A DNA stretch of 64,000 nt from an uncultured Bacilli bacterium (GTDB lineage Bacteria; Bacillota_I; Bacilli_A; RF39; UBA660). Shown one piece after another: positions 2,682 through 39,095 of the stretch. How positions within the stretch are numbered: position 1 is the first letter of the stretch; every line of letters begins with the position of its first letter. A model generated the notes under the pieces. That model saw nothing but the letters and a program-made list of their open reading frames with translations, was not told where the DNA came from and searched no databases. The DNA lies in contig CANRPY010000002.1 in the NCBI GenBank assembly GCA_947632595.1, positions 23,951 to 87,950 on the forward strand, written 5' to 3'. Made by a program: the position numbers and the translations under genes.

Positions 2682-4280
2682 TTATTTTTCAATTCGATCA
2701 ATATATTCTTCATATGGAATTTGACGATCGATAATGGTTCCATCTTCTTGAATTTCGATTACTCGATTGGCAACTGTACTATTTAATTCATAGTCACGGG
2801 TTGTAAAGATGATTTCTCCTTGGAAATTACATAACCCTTTATTTAGAGATGTAATACTTTCCAAATCTAAGTGATTGGTTGGTTCATCTAAGATTAAGAA
2901 GTTTGGTTCTTCTAACATCATTTTGGATAACATACATCTTGCTTTTTCTCCTCCGGATAAGACATTTACTTTTTTGAAAACATCGTCTCCTGAGAATAAC
3001 ATTCTTCCTAAGAAACCTCTTAGGACTGTCTCATCTTTAATATCATAGAAATTACCAATCCATTCCATAATATTTTTTTCACTTTGGAAATACTCTGTAT
3101 TATCTTGTGGTAAATAGCCAGGATTCATGGTTTTGCCCCACTCTATGGTTCCTTTATCATATTTTTCTTTTCCTATTAAAATATTAAATAGTGTTGTTTT
3201 TACCATGTCGTCTTTTGCAAGAATACAAATCTTATCTCCTTTTAATACCGTGAAAGATACTTTATCTAATACTTTTTTACCATCTACTATTTTGGTTAAG
3301 TTTTCTACTTTTAAGATTTCTTTTCCTGCTGGCTTTTCTATTTTAAAATCAATATATGGATATTTTCTACTACTTGGTATAATTTCATCTAATTCTATTT
3401 TTTCTAACATTTTCTTTCTAGAAGTTGCTTGTTTAGACTTAGAGGCATTGGCAGAGAATCTTGCGATAAATGCTTGTAATTCTTTTATTTTCTCTTCTTT
3501 TTTCTTATTAGATTCTTTCATTTGTCTTTGTAATAATTCACTTGATTCATACCAGAAATCATAGTTTCCAATGTATAATTTAATTTTTGAATAATCAATA
3601 TCACATATATGTGTACATACTTTATTTAAGAAATGTCTATCGTGTGAAACAATGATTACGGTGTTATTAAAGTTAATTAGGAATTCTTCTAACCAACGAA
3701 TGGCTTCTAAGTCTAAGGAGTTTGTTGGTTCATCTAAAAGTAAGATATCTGGATTTCCAAATAAACTTTGAGCAAGGAGTACTTTAACTCTTAATTTTAC
3801 AGGAATTTCTTTCATCAACATATAGTGATTTTCTTCTGGAACTCCTAGGTTATTTAGTAATTGTGCTGCATCTGGTTCTGCATTCCAACCATCTAGTTCC
3901 ATGAATTCTGCTTCTAGGTTTGCAAGTTTCATACCATCTTCTTCAGAAAATTCTGTTTGTTGATACATCTTATCTTTTTCTTCCATGATTTCGTATAATT
4001 TGCTGTTCCCCATAATGACAACATCAATCACTCTTTTTTCTTCAAATTGATAGTGGTCTTGTTTTAAGAAAGAGATTCTTTCTCCTTTGGATACGGTAAT
4101 TTCTCCTGTTGTTGTTTCTAATTCTCCACTTAATAGTTTTAAGAAAGTAGATTTTCCAGAACCATTTGCTCCAATTAGTCCATAACAGTTTCCATTTGTA
4201 AATTTTAAATTTACATCTTCAAATAAGGTTCTCTTTCCAAATTTCAAACTTACATTGTTTACTTGTATCATTTGCTTCAC
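2682..4280 (-). CDS. ABC-F family ATPase (two NBDs, no TMD). NBD1 signature and NBD2 Walker A/H-loop are degenerate
   Basis: NBD1 Walker A GANGSGKST. NBD2 signature LSGGEKARC and Walker B LILDEPTNHLD. Inter-domain linker of ~70 aa. 532 aa. Confidence 0.8.
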   Translation of the reverse strand: MKQMIQVNNVSLKFGKRTLFEDVNLKFTNGNCYGLIGANGSGKSTFLKLLSGELETTTGEITVSKGERISFLKQDHYQFEEKRVIDVVIMGNSKLYEIMEEKDKMYQQTEFSEEDGMKLANLEAEFMELDGWNAEPDAAQLLNNLGVPEENHYMLMKEIPVKLRVKVLLAQSLFGNPDILLLDEPTNSLDLEAIRWLEEFLINFNNTVIIVSHDRHFLNKVCTHICDIDYSKIKLYIGNYDFWYESSELLQRQMKESNKKKEEKIKELQAFIARFSANASKSKQATSRKKMLEKIELDEIIPSSRKYPYIDFKIEKPAGKEILKVENLTKIVDGKKVLDKVSFTVLKGDKICILAKDDMVKTTLFNILIGKEKYDKGTIEWGKTMNPGYLPQDNTEYFQSEKNIMEWIGNFYDIKDETVLRGFLGRMLFSGDDVFKKVNVLSGGEKARCMLSKMMLEEPNFLILDEPTNHLDLESITSLNKGLCNFQGEIIFTTRDYELNSTVANRVIEIQEDGTIIDRQIPYEEYIDRIEK

Positions 4281-5675: not shown

Positions 5676-6302
5676 AAAAAAGTAGATTCTCTACTTTTAT
5701 CCTTCTTGAAATTGTTTGGCTTTCTTTATAGTAAACTTTGAGCCTTAGGTCAAGTAGGATTTCCCTAATTCTTACAAACTCGTTACCAAGCTTGCGGTTC
5801 CCCTTTACTAGAATTAATATGGTGTTACCATCCCATACGACTTGATTACCACTTAGTGCCCACTGCAATCCTATAATGAAATACACTCTAGGAGATTTCC
5901 TCTCCAACACTTTATCTCTAATTCTTTTTTGCAAGAATAATTTCAAAATGCAATACCTATTCATAAGTGGCCGCTTATCAATAGTTTGTTCATTTTTCCC
6001 AATATTCTCACTCAAGACAGGCTACACTGCACATAGCTTGCGCCACAATACAGGTTCATCCCTAATTCGTAACAAGTCATCAGTTGTTGTTCGTATAGAT
6101 TTGTCACAAGGTTAGGTCTCCGCGAAAGTTGGGTCGGGATCCATATGCCATTATGGGTCGCCCAAAATTCTCTCTCCAGCATCCACCCCAAACTGGGCGT
6201 AAGAAGCAGACACCAAAGGTTTCATCGATATGCCCTTTAACGACTTTTTACATTCGTCTTCCAAATAAAGTAATTGACTAGAATAATGTGCCATCAATTA
6301 CG
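5676..6302 (-). ncRNA. Large (~620 nt) GC-enriched structured non-coding RNA of unassigned family; OLE-like RNA is one candidate
   Basis: Bounded by a consensus SigA promoter and a U9 intrinsic terminator. Local GC ~40-50% against a ~28% background. Contains many short self-complementary segments, e.g. CGCCCA...TGGGCG and GGAGA-ggaaa-TCTCC. The only ORF inside uses a TTG start, has no RBS and uses rare CGG/AGG codons. Confidence 0.55.
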
Positions 6303-6308
6303 TGTTAC

Positions 6309-6337
6309 ATTATAACATATTTTTAAAAATATGTCAA
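6309..6337 (-). promoter_or_regulatory. Consensus SigA promoter driving the large ncRNA
   Basis: Minus strand TTGACA-17nt-TATAAT, a perfect consensus, directly after the histidine kinase stop codon. Confidence 0.7.
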
Positions 6338-21151: not shown

Positions 21152-21745
21152 CTATTTTCCAATAGTCTTTTCTCCTTTTTGACGTAGAGGAGCATAAACG
21201 GATTCATACTCTTTTAATGCCTCCTCTACTTGAATGGTATAATTTTGTTCTTCTTTTCCATCCATTACAAATTCTTCTATTAATTTTGCCCCTAAAGCAA
21301 GCATTGTTCTGCTGGATGCTGGATTGTCCTTATAGCAAGACAACATTACTTCTTCGATTCCATTTTCTTGACAGACTTCTAGGGCCAAATAAAGATTAAT
21401 CTTATTATATCCTTTTCTTCTTTCGGTTGGTCGAATTCCATATCCAATATGTCCACCGGACTTTCGAAGTCTTTCATTAAGAGCTAGACGAATATTGGTC
21501 ATTCCAATAATTTTATTATCGCTTTCTCTTACCAAAAAGTACGTTTTGGCAGGGACTCTTCCTTCTCCTGGATTTGCTGTCTGATCCTTCTCTAGTTTTA
21601 AAAGCCACTCTTCATAATTTGATAGATAATGATCTAGTCCACCGCATCCATTAATATTTGACTGATAAGCATAGTGCTCTTCTATATATTCTATGGCATC
21701 TTTTTTTCTTGCTAACGAGGGCACTTCATAAAATAATCTATCCAT
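21152..21745 (-). CDS. GNAT family N-acetyltransferase
   Basis: Motif A-like RRKGYNKINLYLALEVCQENG. Confidence 0.6.
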   Translation of the reverse strand: MDRLFYEVPSLARKKDAIEYIEEHYAYQSNINGCGGLDHYLSNYEEWLLKLEKDQTANPGEGRVPAKTYFLVRESDNKIIGMTNIRLALNERLRKSGGHIGYGIRPTERRKGYNKINLYLALEVCQENGIEEVMLSCYKDNPASSRTMLALGAKLIEEFVMDGKEEQNYTIQVEEALKEYESVYAPLRQKGEKTIGK

Positions 21746-21760
21746 TGGAATCCCTCCTTT

Positions 21761-22567
21761 CTATTTCGTATTCTTTTTCTTTTTTTCTTTGTTTATATGA
21801 AAATTAATTAAGATTCCTTCATCTTGATAGCCTACATCTTGGTATGCTTTATTGGATGCTTTATAATGGTAGTCTGTATAAAGAATTGGTTGAAACCCTT
21901 CTTCTTTTAATTTTTTTGATAGGCAATAGATTAGATACTTACAATATCCTTTCTTTCTCTCTTCTACTGGTGTATATACATGAGTAATTTTAGCAAGATC
22001 ATCCATTACTCTGTATCCTGCCATACAAACTATTTTTCCTGTTGCATCTTTTAAGACATAAAAGTTTTTTTCTTCTAACCATTGTTGTGCTTGATTTAAT
22101 GCATCTACTTCTTGAATTTCTTCTTGTCTCATTTCTTTTTCCGTTGCTTTCCAATAGGCTGCTAAAGTAAGTTTATCGGAATAATTTGGTCTTACAAATA
22201 CCCCTTTCCCTTTTAATGGATGAATTGGTTCTTTGCAAGATAGATAACCCATCTCAAAATAGGATGATGTATCATAATCTTTTTCTAGGATATGATATAG
22301 TCCTTTTTTACAAGTAATTTTATTTACATTTTCTTCTAGCATAGCATCTAAATCTTTTTCTAATTCTAATACTTGCTCTGGTGTAATACCCTCTTTTGTC
22401 CAAATCCATATTGGGTAGGATGTTTCACTTCTTCCTATTATATAAGAAGAGAGGTCTGAATAAAATATTGGAGATGGGGCTTCTGCGATTACAGATAATA
22501 GACTAAATTTTCCTTTTTCTTTCACAAAGCCATCTACTTTTTGTAAACATTCCTTTGTTACTTGCAT
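21761..22567 (-). CDS. GNAT family N-acetyltransferase
   Basis: ERKKGYCKYLIYCLSKKLKEEGF acetyl-CoA binding-like motif. Confidence 0.55.
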   Translation of the reverse strand: MQVTKECLQKVDGFVKEKGKFSLLSVIAEAPSPIFYSDLSSYIIGRSETSYPIWIWTKEGITPEQVLELEKDLDAMLEENVNKITCKKGLYHILEKDYDTSSYFEMGYLSCKEPIHPLKGKGVFVRPNYSDKLTLAAYWKATEKEMRQEEIQEVDALNQAQQWLEEKNFYVLKDATGKIVCMAGYRVMDDLAKITHVYTPVEERKKGYCKYLIYCLSKKLKEEGFQPILYTDYHYKASNKAYQDVGYQDEGILINFHINKEKKKKNTK

Positions 22568-22577
22568 AATATCCCTC

Positions 22578-23372
22578 CTAAATTCTTGCGTTCATTAGGT
22601 TTGTACTACTATATCTTTTTAATCCTTTATAGAAGATAAAGAATGCTAAAAAGATAAAGAATATCGTACCTAAGATAATAAAGATTATCCATTTCCACTC
22701 AAGGTGTGAGATTAATTGAACGGGTACATATGTTGTAATTCCAAGTGGTAAAATGGTATAAAATAGAATTTTTACCAAACCTTTAAAGATTCCTTCTGGG
22801 TAGGTTGCGAAATTGGTCATTAAACTATTTACGGTATTGGCAAGCATCTCTGTTTTTCCAAACCAAAAAGATAAGGAAGAAAAGATAATGGCAATGCTAA
22901 CAATTACTAGAGCTCCACATAATCCGCAAAAAAGGAATAATAGAATTGTGTGTGGTTTTAGGCCAAATAGAAAAAGCATAATTAGTCCATAAATCATATC
23001 TCCGATAGCAGATACTTCTACACTACTAGTAATACATGAGATTAGAACATTTTTTGGTTGAACTAAGTAATTGTCTAATTGTCCACTGTTAATAATTTCG
23101 GATAACTCGAAAGAGTCTTTAAAAAAGAATCTGGAAATTCCATAGGTCATGGCTGCCATTCCCCAAAGCAATAATACTTGTTTAAAACTATATCCCCCTA
23201 CATTGTCTTTTAGGGAATAAAGAATGATCCATTGAACAATAAAACAAGCATTATTTAAAATCATGAAAATAATATTTGTTAGAAACGTTACTTTATTTAA
23301 CATTTCTCTTTGTAATGCAAATTTAATAGATTGTGCGGTTACAATGATTTGATTTTTAACCTCCGTTAACAT
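22578..23372 (-). CDS. ABC-2 family transporter permease
   Basis: Six-TM hydrophobic profile. In an operon with the DrrA-like ATPase. Confidence 0.6.
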   Translation of the reverse strand: MLTEVKNQIIVTAQSIKFALQREMLNKVTFLTNIIFMILNNACFIVQWIILYSLKDNVGGYSFKQVLLLWGMAAMTYGISRFFFKDSFELSEIINSGQLDNYLVQPKNVLISCITSSVEVSAIGDMIYGLIMLFLFGLKPHTILLFLFCGLCGALVIVSIAIIFSSLSFWFGKTEMLANTVNSLMTNFATYPEGIFKGLVKILFYTILPLGITTYVPVQLISHLEWKWIIFIILGTIFFIFLAFFIFYKGLKRYSSTNLMNARI

Positions 23373-24147
23373 TTAACTTCTTTACCCCCTTTCTATAAAT
23401 CCAATGCGTTAATAAGAAGGCAACGATTAGATAAATTCCTTGTATGATAAATGCTTCTAATAATTTTGGATAACTAAAATCCACAAATAATTTTGCAGGA
23501 GCATAGCTTACTGCGTAAATTGGACTATATTTCATGATTGGTTGTAGGAAGGCTGGGAAAAATTCAATTGGGAAGATTGTTCCTACTACTAAGATTGCTT
23601 TGGAATATAACCAAAATAATGGAGAGGCATCTTCTATAAAGAAAGAAAATAAACCTAATGCTGTGATTAATAAAATATTAATGATGGTTGCGAAAAGACA
23701 AGATAGTAAGACTCCTATTACCTTTACGAAAGATAGAGTTGGAATACTTTTTAAATAGATTAGTCCAATTCCTAGACCAAGTATTGTTACCATAACAAAC
23801 TTTAGAGTCGTTACTCCAAGATGACTAAATAAAATATATTCTACATAGTTATATGGTTTCGTAATGTTATATGTAATATTTCCACTTCTAACATCATTAC
23901 AAATCTTTCTATTTAATTTTCTTGATCCTAAACTCATCCATAATATTTCTGTTACAATGACATACCAAATCATTTGATTCATTGTATATCCTTTAATGAC
24001 TTCACTAGGATCACTATAGATATAATTCCATAAATTTAGAAAGATAAAAATCATAATACAATAACTGATAAATCCTATTAAAATATCAAAAATATACTGA
24101 AGATTGGTCATTAATTCTGATTTAAAAATATAGAGGTATTTTTTCAT
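23356..24147 (-). CDS. ABC-2 family transporter permease
   Basis: Six-TM hydrophobic profile. Overlapping gene ends, consistent with an operon. Confidence 0.6.
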   Translation of the reverse strand: MKKYLYIFKSELMTNLQYIFDILIGFISYCIMIFIFLNLWNYIYSDPSEVIKGYTMNQMIWYVIVTEILWMSLGSRKLNRKICNDVRSGNITYNITKPYNYVEYILFSHLGVTTLKFVMVTILGLGIGLIYLKSIPTLSFVKVIGVLLSCLFATIINILLITALGLFSFFIEDASPLFWLYSKAILVVGTIFPIEFFPAFLQPIMKYSPIYAVSYAPAKLFVDFSYPKLLEAFIIQGIYLIVAFLLTHWIYRKGVKKLNVNGG

Positions 24148-25136
24148 TCTTTTTCACCATCTTTATAAATCTCACTAATAATATCTTCTAGAGGTACGTT
24201 GGATATATTAATATCAATCATATTATCGGTATTTAATAATTTAATGGCATCTGCTATTGTTTTTTTCTTTAAATCTACTTCTAGTTTTAAATTGTAATCT
24301 TTATCTTTTAGAATGGTAATTCCATCTACTTCTTCTAGATTTACTTTTTCTTTCATTTTGACATCGATTATTTTTTTATTTAAGTAATGGTATTTTAAAT
24401 TTTCCATGGTATCATCTAAAACAATTTGTCCTTTATTTACGATAATAACTCTTTTACATAATTTTTCTATATCAGATACATCGTGAGAGGTTAAGACAAT
24501 GGTTGTTTTAAATTCTTTATTCATTCGTTTAATCAAGGTTCTTATCTTTTCTTTTACAACAGGGTCTAATCCTATTGTTGGTTCATCTAAGAACAAGATT
24601 TTTGGTTCATGAATTAAGGATGCTACGATTTCACATCGAATTCTTTGTCCCAAACTTAGGTTTCTTACTGGAGTATTGATGAATTCGTCTAATTCAAAGA
24701 GTTCTCTCATTTCATCAATTTTTTGTTCTACGACAGATTCTGGAATATCATAGATGGCTCCGAAGAATTTAAAATTATCATATGGGGTTAAGTGTGTCCA
24801 TAATTGTTCTTTTTGTCCAAAGACACAACCGATTTCATATGCTAACTTTTTTCTATCCTTTGTTGGATCTAATCCTAAGACGTCAATTTTTCCACCGTCT
24901 GGGAATAAAATTCCTGTCATCATTTTAATCGATGTTGATTTCCCTGCACCATTTGGTCCAATGAAGGCAATCATTTCTCCTTTTTCTACGGAAAAAGAGA
25001 TGTTTTTTACAGCTTTGATGATATTGTATTTTGGCTTGATAAAGGATTTAATACTGCCTTTTAATCCTTTTTCTTTGATTTTTACTTTGAAACTTTTGGA
25101 TAATTTTTCAACGGTTATTACAGCCATACTAATCAC
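24144..25136 (-). CDS. ABC transporter ATP-binding protein (DrrA-like with C-terminal extension)
   Basis: Walker A GPNGAGKST. Signature LSLGQRIRC. Walker B LFLDEPT. RBS AAAGGAGTGA. Confidence 0.85.
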   Translation of the reverse strand: MISMAVITVEKLSKSFKVKIKEKGLKGSIKSFIKPKYNIIKAVKNISFSVEKGEMIAFIGPNGAGKSTSIKMMTGILFPDGGKIDVLGLDPTKDRKKLAYEIGCVFGQKEQLWTHLTPYDNFKFFGAIYDIPESVVEQKIDEMRELFELDEFINTPVRNLSLGQRIRCEIVASLIHEPKILFLDEPTIGLDPVVKEKIRTLIKRMNKEFKTTIVLTSHDVSDIEKLCKRVIIVNKGQIVLDDTMENLKYHYLNKKIIDVKMKEKVNLEEVDGITILKDKDYNLKLEVDLKKKTIADAIKLLNTDNMIDINISNVPLEDIISEIYKDGEKE

Positions 25137-25218
25137 TCCTTTCTAAATCTTTCGCTTTCATAGACTTCCTATCATCAAAACTATTATATTATACTTTGTG
25201 GTTCTTTTTCGATAAAAA

Positions 25219-25307
25219 AACACGGAAAAACTATTCTTGATAGTGACTCCGTGTTAACCGTGTAGGATTTCTTCCCTATGCAGCTCGTCTCCTTATGCAT
25301 ACTCACT
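25219..25307. repeat. Structured direct repeat, copy 1 (~89 nt)
   Basis: AACACGG...CCGTGTT stem. Core TAGTGACTCCGTGTTAACCGTGTAGGATTTCTTCCCTATGCAGCTCGTCTCCTTATGCATACTCACT. Confidence 0.7.
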
Positions 25308-25340
25308 TAAATCTATGAAAACTGGTCGAGAAAACAAAAA

Positions 25341-25427
25341 ATACGGGCACTACTAAACTTAGTAGTGACTCCGTATTAACGTGTAAGATTACTCCCTATG
25401 CAGCTCGTTTCCTTATGCATACTCACT
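25341..25427. repeat. Structured direct repeat, copy 2 (~87 nt, ~88% identical to copy 1)
   Basis: ATACGGG...CCGTATT stem. Inner palindrome CACTACTA/TAGTAGTG. Core TAGTGACTCCGTATTAACGTGTAAGATTACTCCCTATGCAGCTCGTTTCCTTATGCATACTCACT. Confidence 0.7.
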
Positions 25428-25778
25428 CGACTTGTCTAACATGTTACATCAAAAACAATCGTTTGTCAACCTTTTTTTGTTACCATTTCATCTTCTTGTG
25501 ATGAATCGTTTTTGGAAAAAATTGTTCTACCGTATAATATACTACTTAAGAAAAGAGTACAAGCTATACATTTAAACTTGACTTTCACAGATAATTCGTG
25601 TAAATTATAAAGCACCAAGCAAGAAAATGATTCAGTATATTTACTTATTTAAATATATTTGTTATACTTTTCTTGTGAGTTTGATATAATAATATTGTAG
25701 AATATTTATTGTATCTACATTTGGTCTATTATTTCTTTAATGGATCAAACCCGTGTTAGCGCCAAGCGCTGCTTAAAG

Positions 25779-25805
25779 AAGCAACCTTAATGGTTGCTTT
25801 TTTAA
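25779..25805 (+). terminator. Intrinsic terminator on the plus strand ending a short transcript that converges on the DUF3800 gene
   Basis: AAGCAACC-ttaa-GGTTGCTT hairpin followed by TTTTTT. Confidence 0.6.
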
Positions 25806-25811
25806 TGTGTT

Positions 25812-26480
25812 TTAAAATCTTTTCTTGTTTAGTTCTTTTAATATTTTTCTTATTTCTTCTATTGAGAAAAAATATTTTTCGCTCTTTGTAAATGACATTT
25901 TATTTTTATATTTATAATCATATTTATCAATATAAGTAAGCATATCAGATACTTGAAACAGTCTTTTTTCTTCGTGATTGAAATCTACTCTATGTTCAAA
26001 TCCATCATATCTTGAAAAGATTGAGTCGAGAATTATACCTAATGTTTCTTGACCATTATCATAATACATCACAATCTTATCAAACCTACTCAAATAACCT
26101 TCCTGTTCTTTTATCATCTTATTTATTTCAGTAGAAACTTGTTGTCTTAATATACGACTACTATCCGTATACTTTTTATCAATGATTATTGAATGATATT
26201 TTACAGGTATTTTTCTTGAAAATTGGTATATAGCATTAAATATACTTTTTCTTTTTTTGATATCAAAGCTAGAATAATCTCCACGTTTCATTATTAAATC
26301 AGCCATGTGAATCATTTTAGTATAGCCAATTCTATTAAGTCTATCATTTAAATTGGCAAGTTCCGGCATAATATCATCATTGTGTTCATGAAAAGTAAAT
26401 GAAACGCCATAAAGTTCTGATGCTCCCTTACCAAAACCGAATTCTCCAGTTTCATCTACAAAAACATTTAGTCTTTGCAA
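25812..26480 (-). CDS. DUF3800-like protein with an N-terminal RNase-H-like D-E motif
   Basis: N-terminus MQRLNVFVDETGEFGF, where a beta-strand is followed by DE+G as in DUF3800 and RuvC/YqgF-like folds. Probable TTG start, 8 nt after the RBS GGTGGGGG. The ORF track extends 6 codons further upstream. Confidence 0.45.
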   Translation of the reverse strand: MQRLNVFVDETGEFGFGKGASELYGVSFTFHEHNDDIMPELANLNDRLNRIGYTKMIHMADLIMKRGDYSSFDIKKRKSIFNAIYQFSRKIPVKYHSIIIDKKYTDSSRILRQQVSTEINKMIKEQEGYLSRFDKIVMYYDNGQETLGIILDSIFSRYDGFEHRVDFNHEEKRLFQVSDMLTYIDKYDYKYKNKMSFTKSEKYFFSIEEIRKILKELNKKRF

Positions 26481-26596
26481 GATATTCACCCCCACCAAAT
26501 AAATTATATACTATTTTGGAGAATGTTTAAATGTGGTTTCAGTAATCTCAGGAAGCTTATGAATCGTCGTAGTCTCACTTAACTTTGTATAATATT

Positions 26597-26630
26597 AAAA
26601 CATCAAAAGATATTCTTTCGATGTTTTCAA
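26597..26630. terminator. Bidirectional intrinsic terminator between the catalase gene and the DUF3800 gene
   Basis: 13-bp stem AAAACAUCGAAAG/CUUUUGAUGUUUU with loop AAUAU, flanked by U-rich tracts on both strands. Confidence 0.6.
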
Positions 26631-26652
26631 AATGGTTTGATGCCTTTTTTTG

Positions 26653-27796: not shown

Positions 27797-27854
27797 CTTC
27801 CTTTTTCTATTAGGGCATTGGCCTACTTTTTTCGGTAAAATCTATAAATAATAC

Positions 27855-27883
27855 TTGTCAAATGTTGGATTTACTGATAGAAT
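27855..27883 (+). promoter_or_regulatory. SigA-type promoter for tRNA-His
   Basis: TTGTCA-17nt-TAGAAT, ~20 nt upstream of the tRNA 5' end. Confidence 0.55.
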
Positions 27884-27902
27884 ATATTTGTATTTTTGAA
27901 AT

Positions 27903-27979
27903 GGCGCCATTGGTGAAGTGGTTAACACGCTAGTTTGTGGCACTAGTATGCAAGAGTTCGATTCTCTTATGACGCCCCA
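27903..27979 (+). tRNA. tRNA-His (anticodon GTG) with G-1
   Basis: G-GCGCCAT TG GTGAAGTGGTTAACAC...anticodon loop TTGTGGC...T-arm GTTCGATTC...ATGACGC C CCA. The extra 5' G is diagnostic for His. One C-A mismatch in the acceptor stem. Confidence 0.85.
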
Positions 27980-28017
27980 TTTTTGAAAATTGTCGATGAA
28001 TTTCGACTTACAGATAG

Positions 28018-28045
28018 ACTCAATGATTGTTATTGAGTTTTTTTG
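28018..28045 (+). terminator. Intrinsic terminator after tRNA-His
   Basis: ACTCAAT-gattgtt-ATTGAGT hairpin followed by TTTTTTT. Confidence 0.65.
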
Positions 28046-28313
28046 TGCCTCAAAAAGCATTCGTTGTTCCCTATTTATTCCAATATTAAGGTTCGGGGAG
28101 AAAAAGAAAAGAACTTGTAAAAGCTCAATTTTTATGTTATTCTGTATGTAGCAAGAAATCTTGCGTAAAATAAAAAAGGGAACATTCAGTTTTTCAGAGT
28201 TGAATGTCTACCCAAATTTAATTGTGTTAGGCACTTATTCTAGCGAATGAGTGTTATTTTTTTATAACTACTATCATAAAAGACCAATTCTTAGAATTGA
28301 TCTTTTTTGTTTT

Positions 28314-38874: not shown

Positions 38875-39020
38875 AAAACATATAGTGTTGATATATCATT
38901 TGTTGTAATCTTGATTTTACTTTTTGTAATATATCTTACGAATCACTTACTCCGTAGTAGTACCCGCCGAATCTTTCGATACCCTACTATCCTCGTCAAC
39001 CTATTATGGTCCTGGCGCTA
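38875..39020 (-). ncRNA. glmS ribozyme (GlcN6P-sensing self-cleaving riboswitch)
   Basis: Minus strand reads A^GCGCCAGGACC...GACGAGGA...AGAUUCGGCGGGU, which are the core glmS ribozyme motifs, in the 5' leader of glmS. Confidence 0.8.
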
Positions 39021-39095
39021 AATGAAGATACTCCTTTCTCTTTCTCTCATCTTATTAAACATTATACCGAAAAATAAAAAAGATGACAAATTCTT

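Follow-up and report, generated by a model that had tools for sequence, protein, structure and literature searches.

Tandem transcriptional riboswitches, in which each aptamer is served by a terminator of its own, include the tandem thiamine pyrophosphate (TPP) riboswitches of Bacillus anthracis and the combined S-adenosylmethionine (SAM) and adenosylcobalamin (AdoCbl) riboswitches of Bacillus clausii metE. The ykkC subtype 2 riboswitches, which sense ppGpp, phosphoribosyl pyrophosphate (PRPP) or nucleoside diphosphates, are ON-type terminator switches, some of which control NUDIX hydrolases and transporters. The guanidine-IV riboswitch and its variant, the Gd4v motif, are built from two hairpins with conserved loops that kiss, the second hairpin being the terminator. 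Gd4v is an orphan riboswitch candidate of gut bacteria and is found mainly with genes for transaminases and MATE transporters (PMC9788692). Here, we describe a tandem repeat from a 64,000-nucleotide stretch of DNA of an uncultured Bacilli bacterium (contig CANRPY010000002.1, positions 23,951 to 87,950; in the following the window), which lies on the minus strand between a promoter (25469-25441) and the start codon of an ABC ATPase gene (25127) opening an ABC-2 exporter operon. The original prediction, made from the letters of the DNA, described two structured repeats and offered duplicated small RNA (sRNA) genes, a tandem riboswitch-like leader or iterated operator sites as explanations. We consider it probable that the repeats represent a structured leader RNA not described before, present in two tandem copies and forming an orphan class of ON-type transcriptional riboswitches.

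Anatomy of the Repeated Unit

Both copies were found where the original prediction had placed them, and a repeat search of the window resolved them into two direct-repeat families in register with each other, family A (25214-25258 and 25336-25380; 73% identical, spacing 122) and family B (25273-25307 and 25393-25427; 97% identical, spacing 120). A 29-nt core, TATGCATAAGGARACGAGCTGCATAGGGA, occurs exactly twice in the 64 kb, the expected number being 0.00, and is absent from 100 shuffled sequences. By global alignment the aptamer cores (62 and 64 nt) are identical at 58 of 64 positions (91%) and the whole units of ~97 nt at 80 of 99 (81%), and the identity of ~88% over 67 nt reported before is about right. 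The stems named at that time do exist, although on the minus strand they fall into two distinct elements: AACACGG/CCGTGTT and ATACGGG/CCGTATT, taken as outer stems, are the bases of two intrinsic terminators, with CACTACTA/TAGTAGTG forming the upper terminator stem of the upstream unit, and TATGCA/TGCATA, taken as an inner palindrome, is helix P2 of a conserved domain. CCGTGTTA does recur at 25751, but this 8-mer does not mark a third unit; it has two sites in the window, a number that 4 of 100 shuffles also reach, and a covariance model run with its filters off finds only two units in the window and none at 25751.

Read on the minus strand, each unit follows the order AGUGAG-UAUGCA-UAA-hairpin-GAGC-UGCAUA-hairpin-ACA-hairpin-GAG-UCAC, followed by a G+C-rich hairpin and a U-run. 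The first part is a sensor domain in the form of a four-way junction of the helices P1 to P4, in which UAA and GAGC form an internal loop flanking the hairpin P2a (Table 1). Approximately 25 junction bases (G, UAA, GAGC, GGG, YUACAC and GGAG) are near-invariant. For the isolated sensor segments, the predicted minimum free energy (MFE) fold is exactly P1-P2-P2a-P3-P4, with -8.9 kcal/mol for unit 1 and -9.7 kcal/mol for unit 2.

None of the Rfam 15 families accounts for this domain. A permissive scan of positions 24900-26000 against Rfam 15 (E≤10) returned chance matches only, of 15-24 bits, those on the units being just mir-302 and mir-451; guanidine-I, -II, -III and -IV, yybP-ykoY, NiCo, T-box, the DUF3800 motifs and ToxI were among the families checked and gave no match. 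The transporter-associated riboswitch models which had been proposed for comparison, guanidine and ykkC, thus have no counterpart at the units even at this threshold. At the Rfam gathering scores, the whole window contains only OLE, glmS and tRNAs, and in ten other loci that carry the motif nothing matched it. A full-text literature search found no description of the motif, the nearest being the unrelated Gd4v motif (PMC9788692).

Conservation and Covariation Among Relatives

The ABC ATPase has many close relatives in metagenome-assembled genomes (MAGs) of uncultured gut, rumen and caecal "Bacilli/Erysipelotrichaceae". In an orthologous locus with 90% protein identity, the tandem is kept beside cotJC, and P3 as well as the two terminators have undergone compensatory changes. 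A protein-guided scan with one genome per species yielded 80 loci of 77-91% identity, and a loose regular expression retrieved 86 distinct units, which were aligned with MAFFT and from which the covariance model R1 was built; RNAalifold predicted P1, P2, P3 and P4 independently on the 86-unit alignment. The covariance model gave 119 matches in the window and 82 loci, all 119 of them on the strand of the ABC operon. Complete matches have E-values, which are rough owing to a shortened calibration, between 1e-10 and 1e-18, two weaker matches are truncated by contig ends, and no complete match falls between this range and chance, leaving a gap of ~35 bits.

In this genome set, 97.3% of cells are in standard pairs and 13 of 17 pairs have changed on both sides, a level of pairing and covariation reached by none of 500 shuffles, with slid registers pairing at 30-46%. 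P2 switches as a block between UAUGCA/UGCAUA, GAGAUA/UAUCUC, GGGAUA/UAUCCC, UGUGCA/UGCACA and AGGGAA/UUCCCU. The closing pair of P2a is retained in 173 of 180 units (G:C 102, G:U 41, A:U 24, U:A 6). The first pair of P3 is G-U in 102-104 of 106-107 sequences (>95%), which means that the fold exists on this strand only. Conservation of this kind, with compensatory changes and a strand-specific G-U pair, is that of a structured RNA domain with four helices and P2a, as expected for a riboswitch, and not that of the iterated operator sites considered before.

Because the first regular expression had fixed several blocks, a second sampling run was performed with a DNA pattern constraining only the 3' half of the domain, applied to viral and metagenome contigs. 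The metagenome contigs, a set unbiased with respect to genes, contain at least 120 pattern loci, and 91 of those listed hold 115 model-confirmed units. Among the metagenome matches listed, to which the following counts also refer, the unconstrained 5' blocks (GUGAG, the A-U closing P2, and UAA) were again at least 75-97% conserved, and 106 distinct sequences are 97.4% paired with 13 of 17 pairs compensatory; over both sets, slid registers pair at 30-50%. Overall, the genome and metagenome sets comprise at least 204 distinct units. A phage or plasmid origin was also considered and rejected, as the pattern scan of viral contigs gave five chance matches, none of them model-confirmed, and blastn against plasmids gave no match.

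Terminators, Promoter and Proposed Switching Logic

The 5' arm of terminator 1 includes the 3' strand of P4, GAG and the 3' strand of P1 of unit 1, and that of terminator 2 overlaps the corresponding stretch of unit 2, namely the 3' strand of P4 with GAG and UCAC. For the full units, the computed MFE is -26.1 kcal/mol with the terminator versus -12.0 kcal/mol with P1 enforced in unit 1, and -22.5 versus -12.7 kcal/mol in unit 2. By both the arm overlap and these energies, the expression platform is mutually exclusive with the sensor fold, as it is in riboswitches. The arrangement is general: an intrinsic terminator, defined as a U-run preceded by a hairpin with an energy of -6 kcal/mol or lower, follows 104 of 105 distinct units of the genome set, and its 5' arm holds the P1 3' strand UCAC in 89 and the P4 3' strand in 78 of the 105.

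The original prediction had made a tandem riboswitch-like leader conditional on a promoter lying further upstream, and such a promoter is present as TTGACA-17-TAACAT, with a predicted transcription start at ~25434 on the minus strand. TTGACA and the -10 box are kept in the orthologous loci. More generally, a promoter with at most 3 of 12 mismatches whose -10 box ends 4-14 nt before GUGAG is found at 76 of 76 first units (75 of 76 at 7-14 nt), and the same criterion is satisfied at 5.8% of random positions. As the promoter directly precedes GUGAG in all first units, the domain should form the extreme 5' end of the transcript. The overlap of the first motif with the -35 region of the operon promoter, as stated earlier, can be traced to a weak promoter-like match TCGAAA-18-TATAAT (25212-25183, minus strand), which may serve as a secondary promoter but differs from the promoter conserved among species.

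Since the full unit favours the terminator over the sensor fold, the simplest logic is termination by default and read-through when the junction fold is stabilised. Transcription would start from the leader promoter and place both units at the 5' end of the mRNA for the ABC-2 exporter and the GNAT acetyltransferases, each copy being a complete regulatory unit of four-way-junction domain and intrinsic terminator. By default, the far more stable terminator would form and transcription would stop after unit 1 or unit 2. If the junction domain were held folded, most likely by a small-molecule ligand, the UCAC/ACG strands would be sequestered, the terminator would be blocked and RNA polymerase would read through (ON). 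Two units in series would provide two independent read-through decisions, which may lower leakiness and sharpen the response. An ON switch of this kind would suit inducible export and detoxification genes.

Table 1. Features of the tandem leader and the operon it precedes (window coordinates; strands of helices are given in transcript order).
Feature	Positions	Strand	Details
Leader promoter, sigma-70-type	25441-25469	-	-35 TTGACA 25469-25464; 17-nt spacer; -10 TAACAT 25446-25441; matches 10/12
Unit 1 sensor domain, four-way junction	25365-25426	-	covariance model 76 bits, E 8e-18
Unit 1 P1	25426-25423 / 25368-25365	-	GUGA/UCAC; conserved G at 25422
Unit 1 P2	25421-25416 / 25402-25397	-	UAUGCA/UGCAUA
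Unit 1 internal loop	25415-25413; 25406-25403	-	UAA; GAGC; flanking P2a hairpin 25412-25407
Unit 1 P3; P4	25396-25385; 25381-25372	-	ACA 25384-25382; GAG 25371-25369
Terminator 1	25335-25376	-	stem AUACGG..UCACUACUA / UAGUAGUG..CCGUAU, then UUUUUUGUUUU
Bracket helix P0-1, round unit 1	25325-25431	-	GUCGAG 25431-25426 pairs CUCGAC 25330-25325; read from sequence
Unit 2 sensor domain	25243-25306	-	covariance model 77.2 bits, E 4e-18
Unit 2 P1	25306-25303 / 25246-25243	-	
Unit 2 P2	25301-25296 / 25282-25277	-	
Unit 2 internal loop	25295-25293; 25286-25283	-	UAA; GAGC; P2a 25292-25287
Unit 2 P3; P4	25276-25264; 25260-25250	-	ACA 25263-25261; GAG 25249-25247
Terminator 2	25214-25254	-	stem ACACGG...CACUAU / AUAGU...CCGUGU, then U7
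Bracket helix P0-2, round unit 2	25155-25321	-	UUUUCAUAGAUUU 25321-25309 pairs AAGUCUAUGAAAG 25167-25155; repeat search
Conserved block TATAATAGTTTTGATGATA	25170-25188	-	between terminator 2 and ribosome binding site; alignment of 16 tandem-group leaders
Ribosome binding site	25140-25136	-	AGGAG, ~75 nt past second terminator
Regulated operon	21152-25140	-	further genes in the same direction beyond
ABC ATPase	25127-24144	-	ATG at 25127; nearest DrrA subfamily, score below family cutoff
ABC2_membrane_6 permeases (two)	24147-23356; 23372-22578	-	
GNAT acetyltransferases (two)	22567-21761; 21745-21152	-	

Long-Range Helices Bracketing the Units

Long-range helices enclose each unit together with its terminator, a feature confined to the tandem group and some relatives with one unit. 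Both helices require prior read-through to arise. The 3' strand of P0-1 lies just past terminator 1, so that this helix is possible only in read-through RNA; it is retained by tandem-group loci as well as by relatives with a single unit, its variants being AGUCGAG/CUCGGCU and AGUCAAG/UUUGACU. P0-2 comprises 11-16 bp in 15 tandem-group loci and shows the compensatory changes UUUUUAUAGAAUC/GAUUCUAUAAAAA, CUUCAUAAGUUU/AAACUUAUGAAG and AUUUUCAUAGUUU/AAACUAUGAAAAU. These helices might insulate the two near-identical aptamers from each other, or they might stabilise or process the read-through mRNA. The conserved block TATAATAGTTTTGATGATA may be the -10 element of a secondary or internal promoter or part of a structure in the 5' untranslated region (5' UTR), for instance a hairpin that may compete with P0-2 for its 3' strand.

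Distribution and Downstream Genes

The unit is present in 77 of 80 related species, all uncultured gut Bacilli, with 41 loci having one unit, 26 having two adjacent units (spacing 107-310 nt, mode near 120) and 10 having two units separated by a gene, so that the ABC genes and a gene upstream of them each follow a unit of their own. Of 82 metagenome units followed by at least 700 nt of sequence, 73 have the start of an open reading frame (ORF) on the same strand within 450 nt. The distance from unit to start codon is 6-230 nt, so that the domain, as in riboswitches, is part of the 5' UTR, downstream of the promoter, ahead of the start codon and in the orientation of the gene. The condition under which the original prediction would have fallen, a dispersed REP/BOX-like element, was not found: there are two copies in 64 kb and the position is fixed in 77 species.

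A second lineage, from bioreactor and fermentation (digester) metagenomes and including a Clostridiaceae MAG, carries the same domain with G+C-rich stems. These Clostridia tolerate a ~75-nt insertion in P2a (loci L217-L219; L217 positions 3740-3905) or a long P4 (L216, 3625-3771). Just upstream of the latter unit, a partial duplicate of the 5' half of the domain (CCGUGAGUAUGCAUAGG) was observed. The genes following the motif in Clostridia encode a double-GNAT protein, a bona fide dCTP deaminase, a GNAT and a NUDIX protein, the ABC transporter being absent, and a homologue of the double-GNAT protein is annotated in Clostridium thermosuccinogenes (P0128). The double-GNAT genes adjoin genes for class I aminoacyl-tRNA synthetases (tRNA-synt_1b, tRNA-synt_1/1g) and a HisRS-like gene (L216, 525-1520; L217, 1461-3086 and 7941-9029), which could be a coincidence or a hint of aminoacyl-nucleotide-type toxins.

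In the metagenome set, the first gene downstream encodes a GNAT of the 197-aa type of the window for at least 27 units, an ABC ATPase for at least 21, and a PNP_UDP_1 phosphorylase for at least 6, for the most part with a type I phosphodiesterase/nucleotide pyrophosphatase coming next; the remainder are uncharacterised small-protein families and singletons, among them one Pol-beta-type nucleotidyltransferase and further GNATs. An HD-GNAT fusion is found downstream of the motif in the genome set. Against NCBIfam, no GNAT scored above a family cutoff, and matches to RimJ/RimL, BlmB and AAC(6') were weak only. Repeatedly, the first gene encodes a protein of ~150-215 aa with the motif LGYPMDExGTYLYKEVI (L019, 3207-3803; L034, L056, L067, L078 and L043; metagenome relatives), a family without a match in Pfam, PDB sequences or PHROG, and three additional orphan families, of 143 aa, 161 aa and 285 aa, would likewise stand under its control. 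For a regulated family of ~190 aa, the Spo0A C-terminal domain (Spo0A_C) was considered and dropped, as profile searches of PDB sequences and Pfam found nothing. The common thread of the regulon is amine acetylation, export and cleavage of nucleosides and nucleotides, and functionally related genes stand under the same domain in different lineages, the gut Bacilli and the Clostridia, as is the case for riboswitches. From this set of acetyltransferases, an exporter and nucleoside and nucleotide hydrolases, a toxic primary-amine compound, possibly nucleoside- or nucleotide-like, may be guessed with low confidence as the ligand.

Neighbouring Genes and Other Elements of the Window

That an ABC-2 transporter operon follows the repeats was seen correctly before, with an ABC ATPase and two ABC2_membrane_6 permeases; beyond the two GNAT genes, co-directional genes for a 224-aa unknown protein and a DUF5662 protein follow. 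Upstream of the leader, an ORF of 228 aa (25812-26498, minus strand) had been labelled DUF3800, an assignment that found no backing, since the protein matches no Pfam family at E≤10 and no PHROG family. With its flanks (~25470-26650), this ORF, which in the window stands between cotJC and the leader, looks like an insertion of ~1.2 kb. On the plus strand, a strong hairpin with a T-run is present at 25773-25805, with promoter-like sites upstream at 25640-25668, and a preQ1-II-like match at 25680-25789 (plus strand; 22 bits, E 0.64, gathering score 47) lies outside the repeats; the element at 25680-25810 could be a small convergent transcript or merely the bidirectional terminator of the 228-aa gene.

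Elsewhere in the window, a full-length ornate large extremophilic (OLE) RNA (5700-6310, minus strand; 405.9 bits versus Rfam RF01071) places the organism among the anaerobic Bacillota carrying OLE, and a glmS ribozyme/riboswitch is present at 38880-39030 (minus strand; 62 bits versus a gathering score of 37). A lone tRNA gene (27904-27976, plus strand, 57.3 bits) lies within a 72-aa minus-strand ORF (27842-28060) upstream of cotJB/cotJC-like genes, and here either the ORF call is spurious or the overlap is genuine.

Discussion

The anatomy, strand, promoter position, covariation, overlap with terminators, distribution and gene associations of the tandem leader were read from the sequences of many species, whereas a small molecule as effector, the ON logic and the class of ligand are inferred. 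The same fold and the same competition with the terminator might respond to a protein, such as an antiterminator or another RNA-binding regulator, or to another macromolecule. Invariant single-stranded blocks (UAA, GAGC, YUACAC and GGAG) could be the footprint of a protein, and several of the regulated genes encode uncharacterised small proteins. However, no ANTAR, CAT/PRD, PyrR or TRAP-like gene is consistently linked to the motif, the flanking genes differ by lineage, and the motif is retained across two bacterial classes before unrelated genes. Moreover, it is a multi-helix junction with ~25 conserved unpaired bases, and multi-helix junctions with many conserved unpaired bases are typical of metabolite aptamers. 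We regard a macromolecular effector as unlikely.

A few observations weigh against a ligand-sensing riboswitch. Sequence analysis cannot separate a protein effector from a small molecule. P1 has only 4 bp and is nearly invariant, with compensatory changes in just 1-5 sequences, so that its competition with the terminator leans mainly on geometry. The regulon is heterogeneous and several of its families lack any match in Pfam, PDB or PHROG, which makes the guess on the ligand weak. Furthermore, expression independent of the switch might arise in the tandem group from the conserved TATAAT block downstream of terminator 2, if it acts as a promoter, and the motif was not found in the upstream regions of more distant double-GNAT orthologues (62-63% identity).

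The view that the units encode a pair of short trans-acting sRNAs, one running from the promoter to terminator 1 and the other from a second start to terminator 2, would explain the strong terminator of each unit, by which RNAs of ~100 nt and ~220 nt are expected, and terminated riboswitch transcripts do act in trans in some bacteria, as known for SreA and SreB of Listeria. Yet the motif always lies directly upstream of the downstream gene and on its strand, often without room for another promoter, and in many species single units directly precede the ribosome binding site; unit 2 lacks a separate promoter, as a strand of the P0 helix makes up the spacer before it, and the terminator always overlaps the conserved domain. 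We therefore judge a primary role as duplicated sRNA genes, offered by the original prediction, to be very improbable.

DNA elements, either iterated operators or a dispersed REP/BOX-like repeat, could be suspected from the palindromes and the promoter-proximal intergenic site. This is hardly credible, as covariation preserves the pairing rather than the sequence, the G-U pairs would be A-C on the other strand, helix lengths vary with hairpin insertions of up to ~75 nt, and the strand as well as the position are fixed relative to the downstream gene. Ribosome-mediated attenuation through a leader peptide fares no better and is hardly to be expected: an ORF of 40 aa (MSMHKETSCIG...) does start from GTG at 25306, and the copies differ in the core only by GAG/GAA, a silent change in its frame, but it lacks a Shine-Dalgarno sequence upstream, stop codons close the frame after 11, 16, 34 or 40 codons depending on the copy, and P2a and P3 vary by non-triplet indels and paired substitutions between copies and species. 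A type III toxin-antitoxin RNA array or a DUF3800-associated motif of the upstream 228-aa gene, suggested at most by tandem structured repeats downstream of a small gene once labelled DUF3800, has practically no chance of being correct, as a related species (L002/L004) lacks the 228-aa gene and keeps the intact tandem leader directly adjoining cotJC, neither that protein nor the Rfam DUF3800 and ToxI models gave a match, an ABC ATPase instead of a ToxN/AbiQ-like gene lies downstream, and there are just two units with one terminator each; the earlier rejection of a type III system was thus borne out.

If the preferred reading of an orphan ON-type riboswitch is confirmed, the known riboswitches would gain a further class, with over 200 distinct members and covariation of unusual clarity, hosted by abundant uncultured Bacilli of gut and rumen and by Clostridia of digesters. 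The genes concerned suggest that a specific toxic gut compound is sensed and neutralised, and the RNA could be a handle to find this compound as well as the substrates of many unannotated GNATs. A more far-reaching proposal is conceivable, which as a whole we think doubtful: the class would sense a toxic primary-amine compound of nucleoside- or nucleotide-like nature, for example an aminonucleoside or aminoacyl-nucleotide antibiotic from anaerobic communities, and would induce a detoxification regulon in gut Bacilli and Clostridia that acts by acetylation through RimJ/RimL-like GNATs, by ABC-2 export and by cleavage through NUDIX, HD, phosphorylase and pyrophosphatase enzymes, the bracket helices being a new device to insulate or process serial riboswitches.

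Comparison with Known Systems

Like the yybP-ykoY (Mn2+) and NiCo (czcD) riboswitches, the motif has four helices meeting at a junction whose nucleotides are highly conserved, and it would act as an ON switch through its terminator and control genes for efflux or detoxification. In contrast to this likeness, it matches neither Rfam model in sequence or structure at E≤10, and its gene set, mostly GNATs and nucleotide-processing enzymes, argues against a metal ion as ligand. The ON-type terminator logic and the control of NUDIX and transporter genes by ykkC subtype 2 riboswitches resemble part of this regulon, whereas the architecture is another one and no ykkC model is matched. Gd4v, too, is an orphan with an enrichment in gut metagenomes, links to GNAT N-acetyltransferases and exporters, control through a terminator and a suspected ligand of the nitrogen-rich amine type (PMC9788692). 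The present motif differs from guanidine-IV and Gd4v by its four-way junction, other conserved bases and the ABC-2 exporter, and by the missing Rfam match.

A close parallel is provided by the tandem riboswitches, which likewise have two units of sensor and intrinsic terminator in series in one 5' UTR, each able to end transcription; here, the adjacent arrangement is found in 26 of 77 related species. In contrast, the sensor of the present motif matches no known aptamer family, its logic would be ON-ON with a direct overlap of aptamer and terminator, and its units are bracketed by a covarying long-range helix. To our knowledge, bracketing covarying helices have no precedent in other tandem riboswitches, and the combination of tandem and bracket helices offers a natural test case for how serial riboswitches avoid cross-misfolding. 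The best reading of the motif is that of a new class within a known kind, the terminator-type ON riboswitch arranged in tandem.

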